Shown piece after piece: positions 10,008-33,667 of a stretch of DNA of 64,000 bases. A program made the translations under genes and the position numbers. Under the pieces are notes generated by a model that saw only the letters and a program-made list of their open reading frames with translations, ran no database searches and had not been told where the DNA came from. Source of the DNA: Candidatus Iainarchaeum sp. (GTDB taxonomy: Archaea; Iainarchaeota; Iainarchaeia; Iainarchaeales; GCA-2688035); contig JAFCCL010000006.1 of the NCBI GenBank assembly GCA_017610205.1, forward strand, positions 32,001-96,000. Reading direction: 5' to 3'. The number at the start of each line of letters is the position of its first letter. Positions within the stretch are counted from its first letter, which is position 1.

Positions 10008-10690
10008 ACTGTGTGGTCTGAAAGACCCGCAGTCGTTATTTTTTTAACCTTGAATCTTTTTCTTTCTTCTATCGCGCGCGACACCGCTTGTGCAGTGCCC
10101 TTTAAATGGCGCGATAGGAGAAAAGATATAATGGTAGTTTTGAGTGGCGGTAGCTGTAAAAATCAAGGGGATACAAGAAACAACTGGGTTACGTTCATGT
10201 TCAAAACAAAGTGTGTGTTCCAGTGTTTTAGGAAGCAGTCGCATATTGATACTTGTATTGCTGCTTTTCGAGAGTTTGAAGCTCATGGCTTTGAGTTTGG
10301 TGAGATTGGTTTTGGTGGCAATCATGCACACTTTAGAGTGAATATTCCAAAGCGTTACAGTGTCGTGGTTGCTGAGATAATGTTGAAGTCCAGAAGCGCA
10401 AAAAGGATATTTGAGAATCATCCTGGTTTCAGGAAAAGGTATCCTCGTGGTTCTTTCTGGTCAGGATATGAGCATCATCAGTCTACAGGAGAGCAGAACA
10501 TGGAGCAGTCGGATGATTATATTAGAAGCCAGCAGGCACATCACAATGTGCAGGTTATAGATGACAGGCACGCACAGTTATCAGCGTTTTAAGCGCCGAG
10601 CGGGGGTACGGCAAGCCCGAACCCAAGTGAGGGCTTGACAGGGAAGCGAGGCGCAAGGGGGTTATAGGGCGCGCAGCCCCCCTATTCCAT
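10008..10690 (+). mobile_element. IS200-like element (tnpA only) with hairpin ends; boundaries approximate
   Basis: Hairpins at 10008-10033 and 10063-10123, Y1 transposase, GC-rich multi-hairpin right end 10593-10686. Confidence 0.8.
10131..10592 (+). CDS. tnpA: IS200/IS605 Y1 (HUH) transposase TnpA
   Basis: HUH motif NHAHF, LKSRSAK, FWS.GY, catalytic DDYIRSQ; AGGAG RBS upstream. Confidence 0.9.
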   Translation: MVVLSGGSCKNQGDTRNNWVTFMFKTKCVFQCFRKQSHIDTCIAAFREFEAHGFEFGEIGFGGNHAHFRVNIPKRYSVVVAEIMLKSRSAKRIFENHPGFRKRYPRGSFWSGYEHHQSTGEQNMEQSDDYIRSQQAHHNVQVIDDRHAQLSAF

Positions 10691-26805: not shown

Positions 26806-27842
26806 GTAAAACAGCAAGTGGAACATATGAAAGGGTGTGCAAAACAGTCTGCGAAATTGTTCCACAGGAAAGAAGAGTTGCAAAAGTTTTTCCAAAGCTT
26901 AAGTATGCTGGCATAAAAGAAAATTTTGATGTCTGGATTGGAAAAAGAATGATTTTGGTTTTCTTTGCAGGAGTAATTGGATTTCTTTTGCCTTTGGCTC
27001 TTGGAAGATACTTTGCATTTCTTGACTTTTCAGCCTTTGTAATGCCTTTGTTTGAAGCAATAGGTCTTGGAATTGCTTTTGCACTTGCAGCAGTGCTTGC
27101 AGTTTACCTTCATCTTTATTACACAATTGAAGGCCGTGCTTCAATGGTTGAAGCAATTTTGCCTGACTTTTTGATGCTTGTAGCAAGCAATATTAGTGCA
27201 GGAATGACTCCTTTTTCAGCATTTAGGGAAGGTGCAAGGAAAGAATTTGGGCCTTTAAGTGAGGAAATAAAAATTGCTTCTGCAAAAAGCCTTGGAACAA
27301 AAAGCTTTGGACTAGCCCTAAAACAGCTTACAGTAAAAATAAATTCAAAGATTTTGAGGGAAACAGTTTCATTCTTTGCACAGTCTCTGAAAAGCGGAGG
27401 CAAGCTCTCAAAGCTTCTTGAAACAAGCGCCCTTGACTTAAGAAGGACACAGGAAATGAAAAAGGATTTGGCTTCAAGTACAAGAATGTATATAATGTTT
27501 GTTGCATTTGTAATAGTAATCGCAACCCCATTGCTTTTAGGAGTATCAATTCAATTCCTTGAAATGATTTCCACTGTACAGGGAGAGCAATTGTCACAGG
27601 GAAGCCAAGGAATTTCAAGCGTTACGTTTCTTTCATCAGAATTGAATGTAAAACCAGCCTTTATGCTAAACCTTTCCTATATTTTGCTTACTGGAAATGC
27701 AATTCTTGCATCGCTCTTTATAGGAGTTATTGGAGGCGGAAAGGCAAAAATGGGCTTAAGATATACTCCTGCAATTCTAATTTCCTCAATAATTGTGTTT
27801 GTTTTCCTTGAACAAATTCTTAATTCAATGTTTGGAATTTAA
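26802..27842 (+). CDS. second T2SS-F/TadC family platform protein
   Basis: LPDFLMLVASNISAGMT, FGPLSEEI, SGGKL; start 26802 by ATGA overlap. Confidence 0.9.
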   Translation: MSKTASGTYERVCKTVCEIVPQERRVAKVFPKLKYAGIKENFDVWIGKRMILVFFAGVIGFLLPLALGRYFAFLDFSAFVMPLFEAIGLGIAFALAAVLAVYLHLYYTIEGRASMVEAILPDFLMLVASNISAGMTPFSAFREGARKEFGPLSEEIKIASAKSLGTKSFGLALKQLTVKINSKILRETVSFFAQSLKSGGKLSKLLETSALDLRRTQEMKKDLASSTRMYIMFVAFVIVIATPLLLGVSIQFLEMISTVQGEQLSQGSQGISSVTFLSSELNVKPAFMLNLSYILLTGNAILASLFIGVIGGGKAKMGLRYTPAILISSIIVFVFLEQILNSMFGI

Positions 27843-28027
27843 ATTAATCAAACTTGCTCAAAAAGTAAGTATTTAGTTGGGTCTATCTTCAAGGCTCAGA
27901 AATGCGTTAAAACTGCCAAAATTGAAAAATAGCACTCAGTGACTAAATACGTACCTCAAAAAAAAGCTTTATATAGAAGAAAACACTAATTAAAACCAGT
28001 TTTATTAAATTAAACGGAGGGAAAAAG

Positions 28028-28486
28028 ATGAAGTTTAAAGGTCAAGGGACAACAGAATATCTGATAATCCTTGCAGTTATAATTGTAGTTGCATTGGTTG
28101 TTGTCGGCGTAATGGGCTGGTTTCCAGGACTTGGAACAGGCATTACAGAAAGCCAGAGCAAAGCATACTGGAAAAGCGCTTCGCCAATAGCAATAACCGA
28201 CTGGAAAATCACAGGAACTGCAGCAGATGCCACATTCTCTTTACAGAATCTGACAACCGACAAAATATCGGTTACTGAGATAACAATTGATGGCGCAGCA
28301 ATTGGATTGGCAGACGTCAACATTGCAGCAGGAGACACCAACGGAAGCGTTACAGGCTCAACAGGCATTGCATGCTCAAGCGGCTCAAGCTACCAATACA
28401 ATATATCAATAAGCTATGATGTTGTAGGCGGAATTTCAGGCAAGACCGAAACAGGGCAAAAGCCATTAGTTGGAAGCTGTCCATAA
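28028..28486 (+). CDS. probable major type IV pilin
   Basis: KG|QGTTEYLIILAV; own promoter (CTTTATATA) and GGAGG; downstream hairpin. Confidence 0.88.
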   Translation: MKFKGQGTTEYLIILAVIIVVALVVVGVMGWFPGLGTGITESQSKAYWKSASPIAITDWKITGTAADATFSLQNLTTDKISVTEITIDGAAIGLADVNIAAGDTNGSVTGSTGIACSSGSSYQYNISISYDVVGGISGKTETGQKPLVGSCP

Positions 28487-28505
28487 AAAAAAGTGTTTTA
28501 TTCAA

Positions 28506-28540
28506 TGGGAAGCATTGTACTTCCCACTATTTTTCATTTT
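28506..28540 (+). terminator. hairpin plus T-tract after the pilin gene
   Basis: TGGGAAG...CTTCCCA followed by TATTTTTCATTTT. Confidence 0.55.
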
Positions 28541-28563
28541 GTTAAATTTAAGTAGGCTATATT

Positions 28564-28860
28564 CTAAAATATTGAAAAACCCATAAAAATAAAGTAAGCA
28601 TAGAAAAACACCTGCGCAAGAATTAATGCAGACGAAGTAAAAATTGTCGACTTCCTGTTTTTTGAAAACCTTTTAACAAAATTCAGCAATAGTACAATAA
28701 GAAAAAGAATTAATGGAAGTGAAAGAATAAAAATGTTCAACACCCACTTTTCAGGAATTCCCCAAACAAACCAAGTTGAAATTATCTTGTAGGCAAAATT
28801 TACCCCAGGCAACACAGCCAGAAAAGAAATTACTATAAAGGCAAGGTTTAATTTTTTCAT
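28564..28860 (-). CDS. small three-TM membrane protein
   Basis: Three hydrophobic segments. Confidence 0.6.
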   Translation of the reverse strand: MKKLNLAFIVISFLAVLPGVNFAYKIISTWFVWGIPEKWVLNIFILSLPLILFLIVLLLNFVKRFSKNRKSTIFTSSALILAQVFFYAYFIFMGFSIF

Positions 28861-28899
28861 TCAAAAAAAGAAAAGGAACAAAACCTATTTAATTGAAAT

Positions 28900-28934
28900 G
28901 CCTCAGTCCGCCCATCTTATTTGAAAGATGAAGA
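28900..28934 (-). repeat. att-like copy 1 of the sRNA 3' end, with hairpin arm
   Basis: GCCTCAGTCCGCCCATCTT (19/19 to 31251-31269) then ATTTGAAAGATGAAGA. Confidence 0.85.
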
Positions 28935-28948
28935 TTTAATTCCATTTT

Positions 28949-29398
28949 TTAAGAGTTCTTGGATTTAACGATGTCTTTTGCTTTTTCAATGAATTTTTCC
29001 GCTTTGTCATATAACTCGCTTAGGTTTTCCTCAAACTTCACTCTTGTGACATTGTATTGAACTTCCTGTCTTAGTCCCCTCAACAAATCAAATAATGATA
29101 AGTCCTCTGAGCTGAGCATTCCTTTTTCGCTGAATTTTTCTTCCAGGTATTTCTGCAGGCAATAGTGGCTTTTCTCCTTTACTCCATGCAAATAAAGTAT
29201 TGCTCTTGCTGCATGAAAAGCCGCATTGTACATTGCTATTGCAGCCATCTCTTCCTTTTTAATGTTTATTAAATCAAAACTTTCATTCAGAAAAAATTCA
29301 GCTTGTGCAAGATCCTGCAATGCAAGCCTCTTGCTTTTAGTGGTTTTCTTGAGTAATCCTTTCTCAAAACAATCATCAACCTCAGTCAAGTTCTTCAC
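28949..29398 (-). CDS. HEPN-domain protein (MNT-HEPN module)
   Basis: YNAAFHAARAIL, KSH, RQEVQY. Confidence 0.88.
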   Translation of the reverse strand: MKNLTEVDDCFEKGLLKKTTKSKRLALQDLAQAEFFLNESFDLINIKKEEMAAIAMYNAAFHAARAILYLHGVKEKSHYCLQKYLEEKFSEKGMLSSEDLSLFDLLRGLRQEVQYNVTRVKFEENLSELYDKAEKFIEKAKDIVKSKNS

Positions 29399-29939
29399 CT
29401 TCTAAGACAATTGATTTAGCCCTTATTTGCTGCAACAATTCTGTTTTCTCTTTTTCCATTAAATCAACTTTGCTTTTAGTCAACGTAATTAACTGCACAT
29501 CTCTTTTTAGCTGGTTACTCAGCTCTCTTTTGATTTGGCTTATTAAAAGCGAATCTGGCTTTTTTTTAAAATAAATTGCCAAATCAATATCACTGTCACC
29601 AGTCATTTTTCCGGTCGCAGCACTGCCAAACAAGTAAACGCCTAAAGGCCGTAACTTGACCAAGTTTTTAAATGGCCTGGTTATTGTGATTTCATGCACA
29701 AGAATAGTTCTCAGTATGCTTGTCGTTAGAGGATTATTATAATTCAGACTGAAAATTTTTCGGTTCTTTTGTTTTGCCACCACAACAATTTTTTTTAGTG
29801 CAAGCTTTGTCATTATTTTGTGAACAGTACTTGGAGCAAGACCTGTTTTTTCAGCAAGCTCTCGCAGATAGTATTTCTTATTCAAAAGAAGCTCTAATAG
29901 TCGAAATGTGCTTTCATTAAGAAAATCAATATTACCCAT
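29382..29939 (-). CDS. HTH + minimal nucleotidyltransferase (MNT)
   Basis: YLRELAEKTGLAPSTV HTH; LFGSAATG...SDIDLAI. Confidence 0.9.
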   Translation of the reverse strand: MGNIDFLNESTFRLLELLLNKKYYLRELAEKTGLAPSTVHKIMTKLALKKIVVVAKQKNRKIFSLNYNNPLTTSILRTILVHEITITRPFKNLVKLRPLGVYLFGSAATGKMTGDSDIDLAIYFKKKPDSLLISQIKRELSNQLKRDVQLITLTKSKVDLMEKEKTELLQQIRAKSIVLEGEELD

Positions 29940-29997
29940 GTAATAATACCAAACGTTCATATATAAAAACGTTTCGTTCACACAGAAAAACAATAAA

Positions 29998-30032
29998 GCC
30001 TCAGTCCACCCATCTCTCTCGAAAAATGAAGA
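29998..30032 (-). repeat. att-like copy 2 of the sRNA 3' end, with hairpin arm
   Basis: GCCTCAGTCCACCCATCT (17/18) then CTCTCGAAAAATGAAGA. Confidence 0.8.
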
Positions 30033-30057
30033 AAGACTTACAAGACCTTGAAAAGCA

Positions 30058-30288
30058 TTATTTTAGAAACTTAGCCAGTTCTTCAATGTCAAGGTTAGCT
30101 TGCCTTAGAATGGATTTCATTGTACCTGTTCTAATCACTTGTTTCAAAGGAATAATAACAGTAAGCTTTCTTCCGCTTGCAAATTTCCTGAGCTTTACAT
30201 GACTCCCCCTCTGCTTGACAGATTTAAAGCCAGCCTTCTCCAAAGCTTTAATTACTTCCTTTCCTGAAAGAACTGGAAACTTAGGCAC
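30058..30288 (-). CDS. hicA: HicA toxin
   Basis: SGKEVIKALEKAGF..QRGSHVKL, GTMKSILRQA. Confidence 0.9.
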   Translation of the reverse strand: MPKFPVLSGKEVIKALEKAGFKSVKQRGSHVKLRKFASGRKLTVIIPLKQVIRTGTMKSILRQANLDIEELAKFLK

Positions 30289-30490
30289 AGGCTTTCACTT
30301 CAAAAGTAGTGACAAAAGGAGCAATATCTGAAAGCTTTATGTCCTTCTTGTCTTCCAAATAGAGTTCAACAGCCTCTTTCAAATTAGCCAGAGCATCTTC
30401 TATTGAATTGCCTTGCGAAGCAACATCAAGCTCAGGGCACAAAGCAACATACTCGCCCTCTTCTTTACTAATTACTGCAGATAATCTCAA
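30281..30490 (-). CDS. hicB: HicB antitoxin
   Basis: YVALCPELDVASQG.SIEDALANLKEAVELYLE. Confidence 0.9.
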   Translation of the reverse strand: MRLSAVISKEEGEYVALCPELDVASQGNSIEDALANLKEAVELYLEDKKDIKLSDIAPFVTTFEVKACA

Positions 30491-30631
30491 AATATCACCT
30501 AGTATATTTAATGGATAAACAGTATAAAAAAAGATTTGTTTCCCACCAATTTAACTCTAAAAATGAGCTCAGGCGTGCAATATGGTAGAAAGATAATATT
30601 TAATTGTTTAAGATGCATCATTCTGTTAAAG

Positions 30632-31231
30632 ATGACTCCGAAGAAAGCAATTAGAAAAAGAGAAGCTAGAGTAACACAAAATCTGAAAAAAACGCTTGCG
30701 AGATTAAGACCGAAGCTGAAACCTTTCTTAGCAAATCCAAAACCCATAACTGTCGAACAACTTCGAGCAGGCGACATACTATTTTTTAGGCCGAAATCTG
30801 ATTCAGCTATTATAAGAAAGTGCCTTGCATATGGACACCCGTTTTCGCACATGGCACTCTACATTGGAAATGGTAAAATGTTTAATTTGGCAAAAACCGC
30901 AAGACTGCCACTGGCCGAAACCGTGTTAGCAACTTATGGGGCACCCTTTGTTTTAAGACCGGAAATTACTAAGAGGCAAACAGAAAAAATTGCTGAAAAA
31001 GCAAAAGAGGCTGTTGGAGAAAAGCATAATAAAAAAGTAGAGAAGATGGTTCAGCTAAGCGAATTGACAAACATCGGATTCAAAAAAGCAAGAACCAAAG
31101 GATTCAACTGCACAAATGTAATATCATTTATTTTCTCAGAAGCAGGAATGGACGTGACACCAGGGGTGCATCCTCTAAGAGCCGGACCCTCACATTTCCT
31201 CCGAAACAAAAGACTCAGAAGAATAAACTAA
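30632..31231 (+). CDS. permuted papain-like NlpC/P60 (YiiX/YebB-like) protein with basic N-terminus
   Basis: LRAGDILFF, FSHMALYIGNG (His first), FNCTNVI (Cys later). Confidence 0.75.
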   Translation: MTPKKAIRKREARVTQNLKKTLARLRPKLKPFLANPKPITVEQLRAGDILFFRPKSDSAIIRKCLAYGHPFSHMALYIGNGKMFNLAKTARLPLAETVLATYGAPFVLRPEITKRQTEKIAEKAKEAVGEKHNKKVEKMVQLSELTNIGFKKARTKGFNCTNVISFIFSEAGMDVTPGVHPLRAGPSHFLRNKRLRRIN

Positions 31232-31250
31232 CCCAATAAAAATATTCACA

Positions 31251-31313
31251 GCCTCAGTCCGCCCATCTTTCTTCATTGCTTGCGCTCTGTGTCATCGTCA
31301 GTTCATCATCGGC
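31251..31313 (-). ncRNA. C/D-box methylation guide sRNA (63 nt)
   Basis: Minus strand gccg-ATGATGA (C)-13 nt-CAGA (D')-ATGAAGA (C')-12 nt-CTGA (D)-ggc; terminal GCC/GGC stem; TTTAAA about 23 nt upstream. Confidence 0.85.
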
Positions 31314-31421
31314 AATTAAATTGTACTGCGAATGGCTTTAAAGAATAGGTATTCTTACAATTTTAGAGGCTACCACGCCTCTCGGTTATCTTTTAAAGAA
31401 GTTTTAAACCCATTTTTTTTA

Positions 31422-32813
31422 ATGCTAACTGTAATGAAGTTTGGTGGTAGTATTCTTTCAAGCGAAAGCCAGCTTAAGCGGGTTACCCAAGTTGTTAAAA
31501 AGCGCAGGGAACGGGAAGATGTTTTGATTGTTGTCTCTGCATTGAAAGGGGTTACCAATTCTCTTATTGGGATTGCAAACAAGGCACTTGAAGGCAGCGA
31601 CTTCAAAGAAGAATTTGTAGCAGTAAAAAAACTGCATCTTGAAATGCTTTCAGGCATCAAAGCCAAGAATTATGTGAAAGAGACTGAGAAAGGGCTGCTT
31701 GAAGAGTTTTCTCTGCTTGAAAGGGCACTGCAGGGAATTTTGTGCCTTAAAGAGCTTTCTCCGAGAAGCCTTGATCTTGTGCAGACAGCGGGAGAGAGAC
31801 TATGTGTTTTGCTTCTATTCGCCTATCTTTTGGATGAAAACATTCAGGCAATTGCCTTTGACGGAAGAAAGCAGGGCATTGTAACAAACTCTGATTTTGG
31901 CAGAGCTAGGCCTTTGATGGATGAAACCAAAAAAAAGCTGGAAAAAACGAAGGGATTTGTACACAGCAATGTCCTGATTTTCCCAGGCTTTTTTGGAGTT
32001 GACAAGCAGGACAATGTTGTCAGCTTTGGCAGGGGTGGCAGTGATTTCAGCGCAGCAATTCTTGCAAACTTGTTCAGAGCAAACTCCTTGGAGTTGTGGA
32101 AGGACGTTGATGGCTTTTTAACCAGCGACCCAAAAATTGTTGAGGATGCTGTGGTTTTGTCAAATCTGAGCTACGAGGAGGCGGAGGAACTTGGCTATTT
32201 TGGGGCAAAAATCATTTACCCGCGAACAGTGGTTCCCTTGAAAGAAAAGGGTATCAAAATCGTGATAAAAAACATCCAGAAACCTGACAAAATTGGAACA
32301 ATTGTAAGTAATGAAAGACTTGAACAGAAGATAGTGGCCAAGTCAATTGCAGTCAAGAGAAACATTGCGAGCATAACACTAAGAAGCCCTATCTTTGTTG
32401 GTCAGGCAGGCGTTCTGGAAAAAATCTTTTATGAAATCGCCAAGGCTAACATAAGCGTTGGCCTTGTTGCAACAAGCGAAACTGGGATTTCTTTCACAAT
32501 TGACGAAAAAAGCCTGCCAAGGACAAGGGAAGCCATTTCCAGAATCGGCCTGGTTCTCGAAGAAGCTAGCTTTGACAAGGATCTTGCAATGGTGGGAGTA
32601 GTTGGAGAGGGGCTGAAGAAAAAACCTGGGGTAGCAGGATTTGTGTTTGGCTGCCTTGCAGAAAACAAGGTAAACGTTGAAATGATCTCTCAGGGAAGCA
32701 GTGGAATAAACATTTCTTTTATAATAAAAGAAAGTGATCTGCACAAAACAGTAAAGGCACTTCACAAGAAAATAATACAAAACCCAAAGATGAAAAATAG
32801 CCTTATTAAGTAA
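31422..32813 (+). CDS. lysC: aspartate kinase with two ACT domains
   Basis: VMKFGGS, VVSALKGVTN, GRGGSDFSA, WKDVDG, FGAKIIYP, MISQGSS. Confidence 0.95.
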   Translation: MLTVMKFGGSILSSESQLKRVTQVVKKRREREDVLIVVSALKGVTNSLIGIANKALEGSDFKEEFVAVKKLHLEMLSGIKAKNYVKETEKGLLEEFSLLERALQGILCLKELSPRSLDLVQTAGERLCVLLLFAYLLDENIQAIAFDGRKQGIVTNSDFGRARPLMDETKKKLEKTKGFVHSNVLIFPGFFGVDKQDNVVSFGRGGSDFSAAILANLFRANSLELWKDVDGFLTSDPKIVEDAVVLSNLSYEEAEELGYFGAKIIYPRTVVPLKEKGIKIVIKNIQKPDKIGTIVSNERLEQKIVAKSIAVKRNIASITLRSPIFVGQAGVLEKIFYEIAKANISVGLVATSETGISFTIDEKSLPRTREAISRIGLVLEEASFDKDLAMVGVVGEGLKKKPGVAGFVFGCLAENKVNVEMISQGSSGINISFIIKESDLHKTVKALHKKIIQNPKMKNSLIK

Positions 32814-32997: not shown

Positions 32998-33240
32998 GTG
33001 GGAAACGTGACAATTACCCTGGAAAATGAGGACGAGGAAACCCTTAGGTCAATTGCCGGAAGCAAGTATAATAATAAAAAAGGCTCTTTGGCAAAAGTAG
33101 TCGGTGAGTCTATAAGACTACTTTCCAGCAAAACCGGAAAAAACAAGGCAATGAAGAGGCAGTTCAAGTGGATGGACCAAGGATTTAACCTAGGAAAAAT
33201 AAAAGTAAAGAACAGAGGAGAAATATATGACAGAAAGTAA
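32998..33240 (+). CDS. putative antitoxin (RHH-like)
   Basis: NVTITLENE N-terminus, GFNLG...RGEIYDR C-terminus; overlaps the PIN gene. Confidence 0.75.
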   Translation: MGNVTITLENEDEETLRSIAGSKYNNKKGSLAKVVGESIRLLSSKTGKNKAMKRQFKWMDQGFNLGKIKVKNRGEIYDRK

Positions 33241-33667
33241 GGAATTGAAGCTTCTTGATTCAAACATCTTGGTTTACGCTTACGACAAAAGCGAGACAAA
33301 AAAGCATCCGATAGCAAGAGAACTTGTTAAAGAAAGATGGAAAAAAGAAGATTCGGTTCTAAGCATTCAAAACCTGGCAGAATTCTATTCAGTTATCACA
33401 AGCAAAATAGAGAGACCTTTGGAGATTGACAAAGCAAAGCAAATTGTCTTAGATTACATTGACGGCTTTGAGATACTAGGATACAACGAAAAAACAATCT
33501 TGGAAGCAATTAATGTGCAAGCAATTTACAAAATTCCTTTCTGGGACGCATTAATAGTTGCCACAATGGAAGAAAACAGCATTGACACAATAATAACAGA
33601 AAACGAAAAAGACTTCAAAAAAGTCAAGTGGATAAAAACAATAAACCCGTTTAAAAAGGCAGAATGA
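33227..33667 (+). CDS. vapC: PIN-domain (VapC) toxin
   Basis: LLDSNILVYA, QNLAEF, FWDALIVA, TENEKDF. Confidence 0.92.
   Translation: MTESKELKLLDSNILVYAYDKSETKKHPIARELVKERWKKEDSVLSIQNLAEFYSVITSKIERPLEIDKAKQIVLDYIDGFEILGYNEKTILEAINVQAIYKIPFWDALIVATMEENSIDTIITENEKDFKKVKWIKTINPFKKAE

Follow-up and report, generated by a model that had tools for sequence, protein, structure and literature searches.

Why does the 3′ end of a guide-RNA gene recur at the ends of neighboring toxin-antitoxin (TA) operons? In a stretch of 64,000 nucleotides (nt) from Candidatus Iainarchaeum sp. (assembly GCA_017610205.1, contig JAFCCL010000006.1, positions 32,001 to 96,000; hereafter the window), a C/D box small RNA (sRNA) gene heads a run of small genes, and a first-pass annotation had noticed that the last 19 nt of this gene recur twice downstream, had divided the segments in between into 2 TA cassettes, and had proposed an integron-like array whose common attachment (att) arm targets a methylation-guide RNA. 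We confirmed the recurrence, and the comparison with relatives supports the interpretation as an integron-like cassette array. The region probably represents 3 small, integrase-less mobile gene cassettes that were inserted successively behind a conserved C/D box sRNA gene, at its 3′ end.

C/D box sRNAs have a C box (RUGAUGA) and a D box (CUGA) joined by a terminal stem, along with internal D′ and C′ boxes. The RNA encoded on the minus strand at 31251-31313 (63 nt; boxes read directly, with a core match) has this layout, including a C box ATGATGA (31303-31309), a variant C′ box ATGAAGA (31270-31276), a D box CTGA (31254-31257), a D′-like CAGA variant, a GCC/GGC terminal stem, and a short GC stem between CAGA and ATGAAGA. 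The D′ guide contains CTGACGATGAC, and the D guide is AAGATGGGCGGA. An identical box layout was identified in 17 homologous sRNA loci of relatives, and no Rfam family matched the sRNA at gathering score, the sole hit in the window to reach that score being a tRNA. The sRNA end GCCTCAGTCCGCCCATCTT (19 nt, plus strand) occurs 3 times in the window, at 31251-31269 within the sRNA gene (0 mismatches), 29998-30016 (2 mismatches), and 28900-28918 (0 mismatches), with start-to-start spacings of 1253 and 1098 nt. With up to 3 mismatches allowed, the expected number of matches was 0.02, and 3 or more matches were found in 0 of 100 shuffles. The match at 28900 is 19 of 19 as first described, and that at 29998 is 17 of 19 rather than 17 of 18. 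This repeated core comprises the D guide, the D box, and the 3′ stem, and since these last 17-19 nt of the sRNA are present at every cassette boundary, the sRNA gene plays a role like that of attI or attB.

Both downstream copies lack a C′ box and carry in its place a shared arm of about 28 nt, reading TCTTCATCTTTC and TCTTCATTTTTC on the minus strand, that is absent from the sRNA, as had been claimed. The arm begins 14 nt past the HEPN stop codon and 25 nt past the HicA stop codon, in agreement with the earlier description of TA operons ending just before it. The site closing the third cassette and the array (28899-28945, minus strand; nhmmer E 3.5e-14) has the arm TCTTCATCTTTC preceded by GGAATTAAA and a core identical to the sRNA 3′ end, and that closing the second cassette (29997-30043, minus strand; nhmmer E 5.5e-10) has the core GATGGGTGGACTGAGGC and the arm TCTTCATTTTTC.

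The MNT-HEPN unit stands as annotated and forms the third cassette, with an MNT-type nucleotidyltransferase carrying an N-terminal wHTH (29382-29939, minus strand; Pfam Polbeta/NTP_transf_2 E 1.4e-15) and a HEPN protein (28949-29398, minus strand; Pfam E 1.4e-14). The HicAB and NlpC/P60 genes, initially taken as a single unit, are split by a decayed arm and core at approximately 30536-30575 (minus strand), in which the arm CTCATTTTTAGAGTTA is recognizable and about half of the core letters are lost. This site was recognized through a repeat family (D2) and the readable minus-strand arm; the nhmmer profile of arm plus core gives it no score. Further, a HicBA-only cassette of 535 nt in a relative (G061, contig C54) aligns to the first inter-core segment of the window only from position 715. 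Because of this third, decayed site, we treat NlpC/P60 and HicBA as separate cassettes, so that the window holds 3 cassettes and not 2. The first spans approximately 30576-31250, with the sRNA core at one end and the decayed site at the other, and carries an NlpC/P60-like open reading frame (ORF) at 30632-31231 on the plus strand, opposite to the sRNA, with a borderline Pfam NLPC_P60 match (23.2 bits, cut-off 23). The second carries a hicB-like antitoxin gene (30281-30490; weak Pfam match, below cut-off) and a hicA toxin gene (30058-30288; Pfam HicA_toxin E 1.6e-16), both on the minus strand with the sRNA. Thus, the MNT, HEPN, and HicA calls were confirmed by Pfam, with HicB weak and NlpC/P60 borderline.

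We searched for the core and the arm in the window's own genome (G000; 1.37 Mb, 24 contigs) and in relatives. G000 contains 5 core matches with at most 2 mismatches and none in the reversed control; the 2 outside the window lie 1.4 kb apart on contig C1 and bracket a 408-amino-acid (aa) Fic gene, the distal copy carrying the arm GCCTCATCTTTCGGGTAG and the proximal copy preceded by a C′-like TGATGA. A profile built from 42 sites found 4 copies of arm plus core in G000, with 2 in the window, 1 on C1, and 1 on C19 behind a decayed HicBA pair. Out of 215 genomes of the phylum, 95 had the core with at most 1 mismatch, all belonging to the window's order, with none among 19 genomes outside the order and a match in 1 genome for the reversed core; in most of these genomes the sRNA itself is the only copy. 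The arm-plus-core pattern (at most 2 mismatches) was found in 34 of the 215 genomes, and 8 of these were sRNA-type (C′ box) or chance matches on reading the matched strings, leaving about 26 genomes of at least 9 families with the same build. Exact core matches in genome contigs comprised 12 stretches, labeled Candidatus Iainarchaeum (5), generic archaeon (2), Chloroflexi (3), and Thaumarchaeota (2), and a metagenome scan for the core gave 10 stretches, 9 of them real. Core copies of another kind, on the same strand and 74-184 nt apart, were seen in 4 genomes of 1 family, f11 (G147:C5, G157:C3, G158:C41, and G162:C24), and look like tandem duplicates of the sRNA gene rather than cassettes.

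Fourteen arrays start at a full sRNA followed by same-sense units of cassette, arm, and core, namely the window and loci L037, L040, L041, L042, L043, L045, L046, L073, L075, L088, L096, L099, and L102. All core copies on any one contig share a strand. The largest array, G061:C54, which appears again as G176 in the core survey, spans 9.6 kb with 2 sRNA-like copies and 10 cassettes, and core copies per contig number up to 11 overall. Contigs frequently break at a core, as is expected of a repeated or variable site. Cassettes range from 0.4 to 2.3 kb with one gene or one operon each, and the cargo consists mostly of TA systems, Fic, GT2, and GNAT genes. The kinds of gene carried are typical of cassette arrays. 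They included HicAB, MNT-HEPN, RHH with PemK/MazF, DUF4258 with a MazE/AbrB-like partner, and MqsA-like proteins, and further cassettes carried an AbiEii-like nucleotidyltransferase with a partner and UPF0175 with a weak DUF3368. Other cargo included Fic/DOC, a GT2 glycosyltransferase, GNAT (weak), DUF211 with VIT1, a Methyltransf_33 enzyme, and CBS, along with several family-less ORFs and 1 DDE transposase. Most cargo genes are co-oriented with the sRNA. TATA-like words lie within approximately 20 nt of the core at many cassette starts, which suggests that cassettes may carry their own promoters.

Gene content at the locus itself is variable among relatives, as the first-pass annotation expected of a cassette array, and not invariant. 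In the window, the sRNA is followed by the NlpC/P60, HicBA, and MNT-HEPN cassettes and then the flank; in the congeneric genome G004 (contig C32), the orthologous sRNA is followed by MNT-HEPN and Fic cassettes and the same downstream flank, and a metagenome contig with this flank (L096) carries a Fic cassette and a mini-cassette. Beyond the last core, the window and G004:C32 have flanks with 85% identity across 903 nt, and L096 matches too. The MNT-HEPN cassette of the window is 92% identical to that of G004:C32 over 1019 nt and 78% identical over its full length to that of a metagenome locus, L088. The Fic cassette on the other G000 contig (C1:5104-6498) has its counterpart in the second cassette of G004:C32, with 90.6% identity across positions 2-1395 of 1395. 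The homology stops at the cores, with unrelated DNA beyond them, and this Fic cassette also matches cassettes in G047 and G061 at 76-86%. HicBA cassettes homologous to that of the window were identified in G002, G004 (2 contigs), G061, and G000:C19, a GNAT-HicBA cassette in G002 and on 2 contigs of G004, and a cassette of DUF4258 with a MazE-like partner at 3 places. Between genomes of different families, G047:C18 (12.9 kb) and G061:C54 (20 kb) have in common only a GT2 cassette (92.7%), a Fic cassette (86.0%), and the att and sRNA sites, and in G061, 1 extra TA cassette sits exactly between the GT2 and Fic cassettes.

A secondary locus lies downstream of a HerA-like gene, where 2 of 12 family genomes (G000 and G004) hold core-bounded cassettes that differ from each other. 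In the remaining 10, nothing resembling the core lies within 3 kb of this gene, and in 4 of them (G002, G003, G005, and G017) the next gene follows directly after the HerA-like stop codon, representing an empty site at this secondary locus in genomes of the same genus. The HerA-like ORF before the secondary array in G000 (C1:1970-5068, 1032 aa) has a C-terminal part that by eye reads like an intein with a homing-endonuclease insert.

These units could arise if recombination of a cassette site with the identical core at the sRNA end, or at the end of a resident cassette, inserted the cassette. Such an insertion would rebuild the sRNA and leave arm plus core at the far end, recombination between 2 sites would remove or reshuffle cassettes, and the outcome would be an integron-like array docked on a guide-RNA gene. 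We infer that this would be conservative site-specific recombination through a circular intermediate, with a host enzyme acting in trans; mobilization in trans had likewise been suggested in the first-pass annotation.

Alternatively, general homologous recombination might shuffle the arrays, with the 45-nt repeats serving as portable homology, much as repeats flanking other variable islands do. Cassettes would then spread through DNA uptake followed by RadA-type exchange, and a site-specific enzyme would play no part. Every boundary has near-identity over as many as 45 nt, which fits this explanation, as do duplicates within the G061 array (c3 and c10 at 93.6%, c4 and c8 at 93%), untidy junctions at the secondary loci, and the failure to find a dedicated recombinase. 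However, it leaves unexplained the same 3′ site on more than 15 unrelated cargo types, the start of arrays exactly at the last 17-19 nt of the sRNA (with the core in common and the arm not), the single orientation of all copies per contig, and the 86-93% identical cassettes across families whose flanks have no detectable similarity, and we consider it unlikely.

The site that ends each cassette is approximately 45 nt long and comprises a GTAAYTAA-like motif, the arm (consensus CTTCATCTTTCGAGTAA), and the copy of the sRNA end (GATGGGCGGACTGAGGC). The 42 distinct copies of arm plus core align with one 1-nt indel and give the consensus TGTAAnTAAnnCTTCATCTTTCGAGTAAGATGGGCGGACTGAGGC, with conservation ending directly after GAGGC. 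The arm repeats the core in inverted orientation, in a degenerate form with internal shortening and with CCTCA/TGAGG and TCTT/AAGA pairings. The claim that the arm folds back on the core held for complementarity, with 82.9% of cells able to pair when the arm is set against the guide part of the core and 42-56% in slid controls; among the non-Watson-Crick cells, 114 of 191 are G.U. For a shared fold it found no support, as RNAalifold on arm plus core gave 2 pairs at -1.25 kcal/mol with neither consensus structure nor covariation, 2 named structures showed no excess over column shuffles, and arm shuffles gave a mean z of -0.68, with z below -1.64 in 6 of 42 copies. The duplex energy of the arms differs from that of random genomic 20-mers with p ~1e-6, a value that is overstated as the arms are mutually related, and 2 of 33 arms were mis-anchored. 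A hairpin in the arm is thus unproven, and the conserved letters CATCTTTCG look more like a binding site. Another type of arm, a G+C-rich hairpin (CAGCCGGGCGTGACGGCT) directly before the core, was identified at L038 (5936) and L096 (1660; both in oriented coordinates), where it closes mini-cassettes of approximately 70-100 nt containing no ORF.

It might also be supposed that arm plus core is a small repeat element or RNA signal (3′ untranslated region, terminator-like, or a decoy for the D guide) that accumulates in a TA-rich island in which the genes are immobile. Its position 14-25 nt past stop codons, the partial complementarity of the arm to the D guide with its many G.U pairs, and the slightly better folding of the sense strand (mean minimum free energy of -9.5 kcal/mol, compared with -5.8 kcal/mol for the antisense strand) are in line with such a signal, as is the lack of a target for the D guide in the rRNA operon of the relative G054 and the 37 tRNAs of G000. 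Nevertheless, whole inter-core segments including their genes recur end to end elsewhere, all 4 copies in G000 are at arrays, no consensus structure or covariation was found, and the arm has neither a C nor a C′ box, so that no kink-turn ribonucleoprotein is possible. We regard this explanation as highly improbable, and arm plus core could have an RNA role alongside mobility.

Guide targets were searched in rRNA of G054; G000 has no assembled rRNA, including that of the large subunit (LSU). The D′ guide matches the small subunit (SSU) rRNA of G054 at 11 of 12 positions. The D guide found nothing better than 7 Watson-Crick and 4 G.U pairs in the G054 rRNA operon (SSU to LSU) and nothing better than 9 Watson-Crick pairs and 1 G.U pair in the 37 tRNAs of G000; its exact 10-nt complement was absent from the rRNA of G054 and G037, and 2 further exact matches fall in stretches without a tRNA by ARAGORN. 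The D guide, which doubles as the core, is nearly invariant across the order despite the lack of a convincing partner in the G054 operon and the G000 tRNAs, and it may either pair with an unseen target or be retained for the sake of the recombination site. In a bolder variant of the cassette interpretation, the orphan D-guide half would be conserved as a recombination site, or, given that the arms are partly complementary to the sRNA, the sRNA itself might take part in site choice. The 5′ half of a C/D sRNA, with a C box and the same D′ guide (TCTGACGATGG), was also observed at about 880-920 on the minus strand of G000:C12; its 3′ half (C′ box, D guide, and D box) is missing, and the sequence context upstream of it is similar to that at the sRNA locus in G004:C32.

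Which enzyme might move the cassettes was addressed by searching for recombinase families. No match to the tyrosine recombinase profile PF00589 was found in or beside any array examined or on the window's contig, in keeping with the annotated lack of an integrase, and no array contig carries a linked tyrosine recombinase; among array-bearing contigs, only G000:C1 has a PF00589 match, and this is a broken copy that lies 70 kb away from the array. Of 61 relatives searched, 58 have a XerA-like tyrosine recombinase, as do 4 of 5 further array-bearing genomes, the fifth (G168) showing only a 465-aa recombinase. As it is nearly always present, a XerA-like host enzyme acting in trans would be our first guess for the mover, and one of the tyrosine integrases of 400-500 aa is a second candidate. 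Pyrococcus XerA is described as binding stem-looped att sites of other elements weakly in the accessible part of a review (PMC8371274). For the integron integrase profile TIGR02249, none of the 215 genomes passed the 265-bit cut-off, the best reaching 138 bits, and the XerA-like hits break at profile positions ~183-236. Of 5 array genomes, 1 had a serine recombinase.

The Y1 transposase showed no consistent association with arrays: Y1_Tnp matches numbered 7 in G000, 5 in G004, and 4 in G047, and none was found in array genomes G001, G002, G003, G015, G017, G138, and G176; the metagenome-assembled genomes (MAGs) are 79-94% complete. One Y1_Tnp (IS200/IS605 transposase) match lies in the window at 10188-10532 (G000:C10:42188-42532; E 4.1e-11), 18 kb from the array. 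Another, a fragment at G004:C20:19996-20139, adjoins a 393-aa ORF that by eye reads like a TnpB/OrfB-type protein approximately 2 kb past the secondary array L036, forming an IS200/605-type element beside that array. Two hints, the left junction at G004:C55 and the A/G difference that distinguishes the sRNA from the arm copies at position 9 of the core in L075, would place the crossover in the 5′ part of the core, within its first 5-9 letters, both hints depending on assumptions about single events.

The arrays might instead be decayed leftovers of larger integrase-carrying elements (proviruses or plasmids) that integrated at the sRNA gene, as in tRNA islands. Such elements characteristically duplicate the 3′ end of an RNA gene, large tyrosine integrases are common in these genomes, and at L076, a DDE transposase and VirB4-like genes lie upstream of a solo arm plus core. 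What this explanation does not account for is that no integrase or fragment of one was found in any array examined, that the units are compact, intact, and conserved end to end between genomes, and that all cassettes have a homologous arm, which decay would not produce; further, the 3 large integrases of G000 adjoin tRNA genes (tRNA-Arg, tRNA-Ser, and tRNA-Thr). A viral master element was likewise rejected, a scan of IMG/VR for the 16-nt core having yielded 5 hits, all of them chance matches inside ORFs on unrelated contigs of 50-66% G+C. We rate descent from such elements as very unlikely. One tRNA island of G000 (C18:40153-46691) consists of tRNA-Arg, a 396-aa tyrosine integrase, and small ORF pairs and ends near tRNA-Leu; by eye, these pairs look like HicAB and RelE-type TA systems, similar to the array cargo.

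Several observations weigh against insertion of mobile cassettes at a single site. The insert at the HerA locus brings its own 3′ part of the sRNA and approximately 228 nt of extra DNA, and it is therefore not a clean one-site insertion. At G004:C55, the array abuts a 178-aa ORF whose G000 ortholog runs 16 codons longer and has no core; homology to G000 stops just before CGGCGGACTGAGG, and approximately 2 kb of the ancestral locus are replaced, so that the junction is not a clean product of 2 att sites. Within the genus, every sRNA found with the window's flanks was followed by a cassette. Some copies inside arrays have a C′ box instead of the arm (L073:8839), and whole sRNA copies recur inside arrays (L074 and L099), neither of which is predicted by a simple one-site model. 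The arm shows neither covariation nor a consensus fold, leaving a folded attC-like substrate unproven. No recombinase was identified, and neither circular forms nor excision junctions came to light; no sequencing run is listed for window 27800-32000. The missing enzyme gene near the arrays is weak evidence, because most of the genomes are fragmented MAGs (60-99% complete).

Sites of the attC type have complementary ends (RYYYAAC ... GTTRRRY) and fold as a hairpin. In contrast, the consensus of the 42 sites, TGTAAnTAAnnCTTCATCTTTCGAGTAAGATGGGCGGACTGAGGC, has no GTTRRRY end, finishes with CTGAGGC, and shows no consensus fold, and, unlike in integrons, the TIGR02249 search revealed no IntI in the 215 genomes, docking uses the 3′ terminus of a C/D sRNA gene instead of a site next to intI, and the cassettes apparently have their own TATA-like starts. 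Integrative mobile elements exploiting Xer (IMEX) have no recombinase of their own, use the host Xer to integrate at dif, and can stack in tandem. The cassettes resemble these elements in tandem stacking and in having no recombinase, with the use of XerA only inferred here, and differ in that their site is the sRNA 3′ end rather than dif. Palindrome-associated transposable elements (PATEs) are nonautonomous derivatives of IS200/IS605 moved in trans by a Y1 HUH transposase. The cassettes are like PATEs in having an imperfect palindrome that is subterminal on one side, in inserting just 3′ of a defined sequence, and in their proposed mobilization in trans, whereas no conserved left-end hairpin was seen, the shared target is 17-19 nt long compared with 4-5 nt, and Y1_Tnp was not found in 7 array genomes.

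As far as the accessible parts of the published descriptions extend, the arrays share with integrons and with clusters of attC sites lacking integron-integrases (CALINs; PMC9668308) tandem short cassettes of one gene or operon with a fixed docking site at the head, an imperfectly palindromic site of approximately 45 nt ending each cassette, cargo rich in TA systems and acetyltransferases, a patchy distribution across the phylogeny, and usually no integrase beside the array. Co-oriented cassettes with one 3′ site each and a distinct insertion site at the head, which characterize integron arrays, were present. Archaeal integrons, according to the sections available of Ghaly et al. 2022 (PMC9668308), use IntI and canonical attC sites; Iainarchaeota are not named in its main text, and its supplementary tables might list arrays from these MAGs. 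With tRNA and tmRNA islands and tycheposons, as far as the available text describes them (10.1101/2020.12.28.424599), the arrays share a small RNA gene that is rebuilt, with a copy of its 3′ end at the far end, and repeated integrations that push older elements outward into tandem islands. The distal direct repeat of an RNA-gene 3′ end typical of such islands was found, and 14 arrays have an intact sRNA at their head. The published islands measure 10-20 kb, with their own integrase, often replication genes, and tRNA targets in the portions of that source consulted (10.1101/2020.12.28.424599), whereas the units described here are 0.4-2.3 kb, have no recombinase, and target a methylation-guide sRNA. 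The terms sRNA and snoRNA have 0 occurrences in the accessible text of the 2021 review of archaeal tyrosine recombinases (PMC8371274), and our literature search found no paper describing integration at a C/D sRNA gene. We rate the arrays as integron-like in operation and not as a member of the integron family. We lean modestly toward the view that they represent an undescribed gene-capture system of DPANN archaea, integron-like with other parts, in which the 3′ half of the sRNA would provide the docking site, the ~45-nt site would act as attC, and the recombinase would be unlinked (XerA or an unrecognised class).

The array lies between chromosomal neighbors in the window. Downstream (28028-28860), a 98-aa membrane-like ORF (28564-28860, minus strand) is followed by a class III signal-peptide pilin ORF (28028-28486, plus strand), for which the Pfam Class_IIIsignal match is weak. 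Upstream, the aspartokinase gene lysC (31332-32813, plus strand; Pfam AA_kinase E 9.2e-43, with ACT domains) is divergent from the sRNA, with a likely start at the ATG at 31434. Between lysC and an ABC-F ATPase, outside the core-bounded array, lies an ORF pair (33227-33667, 146 aa, and 32998-33240, 80 aa) that by size and layout resembles a VapBC-type TA system; G004 has a different small ORF pair there.

If the cassette interpretation is correct, a C/D box sRNA gene would form a further class of integration target beside the genes for tRNA and tmRNA. The short, defined sites (a core of 17-19 nt and a cassette site of ~45 nt) make the system directly testable in vitro, and if one host recombinase suffices, it could become a compact recombination tool. 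Gene exchange in DPANN archaea is poorly understood, and the movement of cassettes between families at 86-93% identity marks a route of horizontal transfer. The arrays would then represent a second, independent solution to the integron-style stockpiling of swappable genes, in tiny, host-dependent DPANN archaea.

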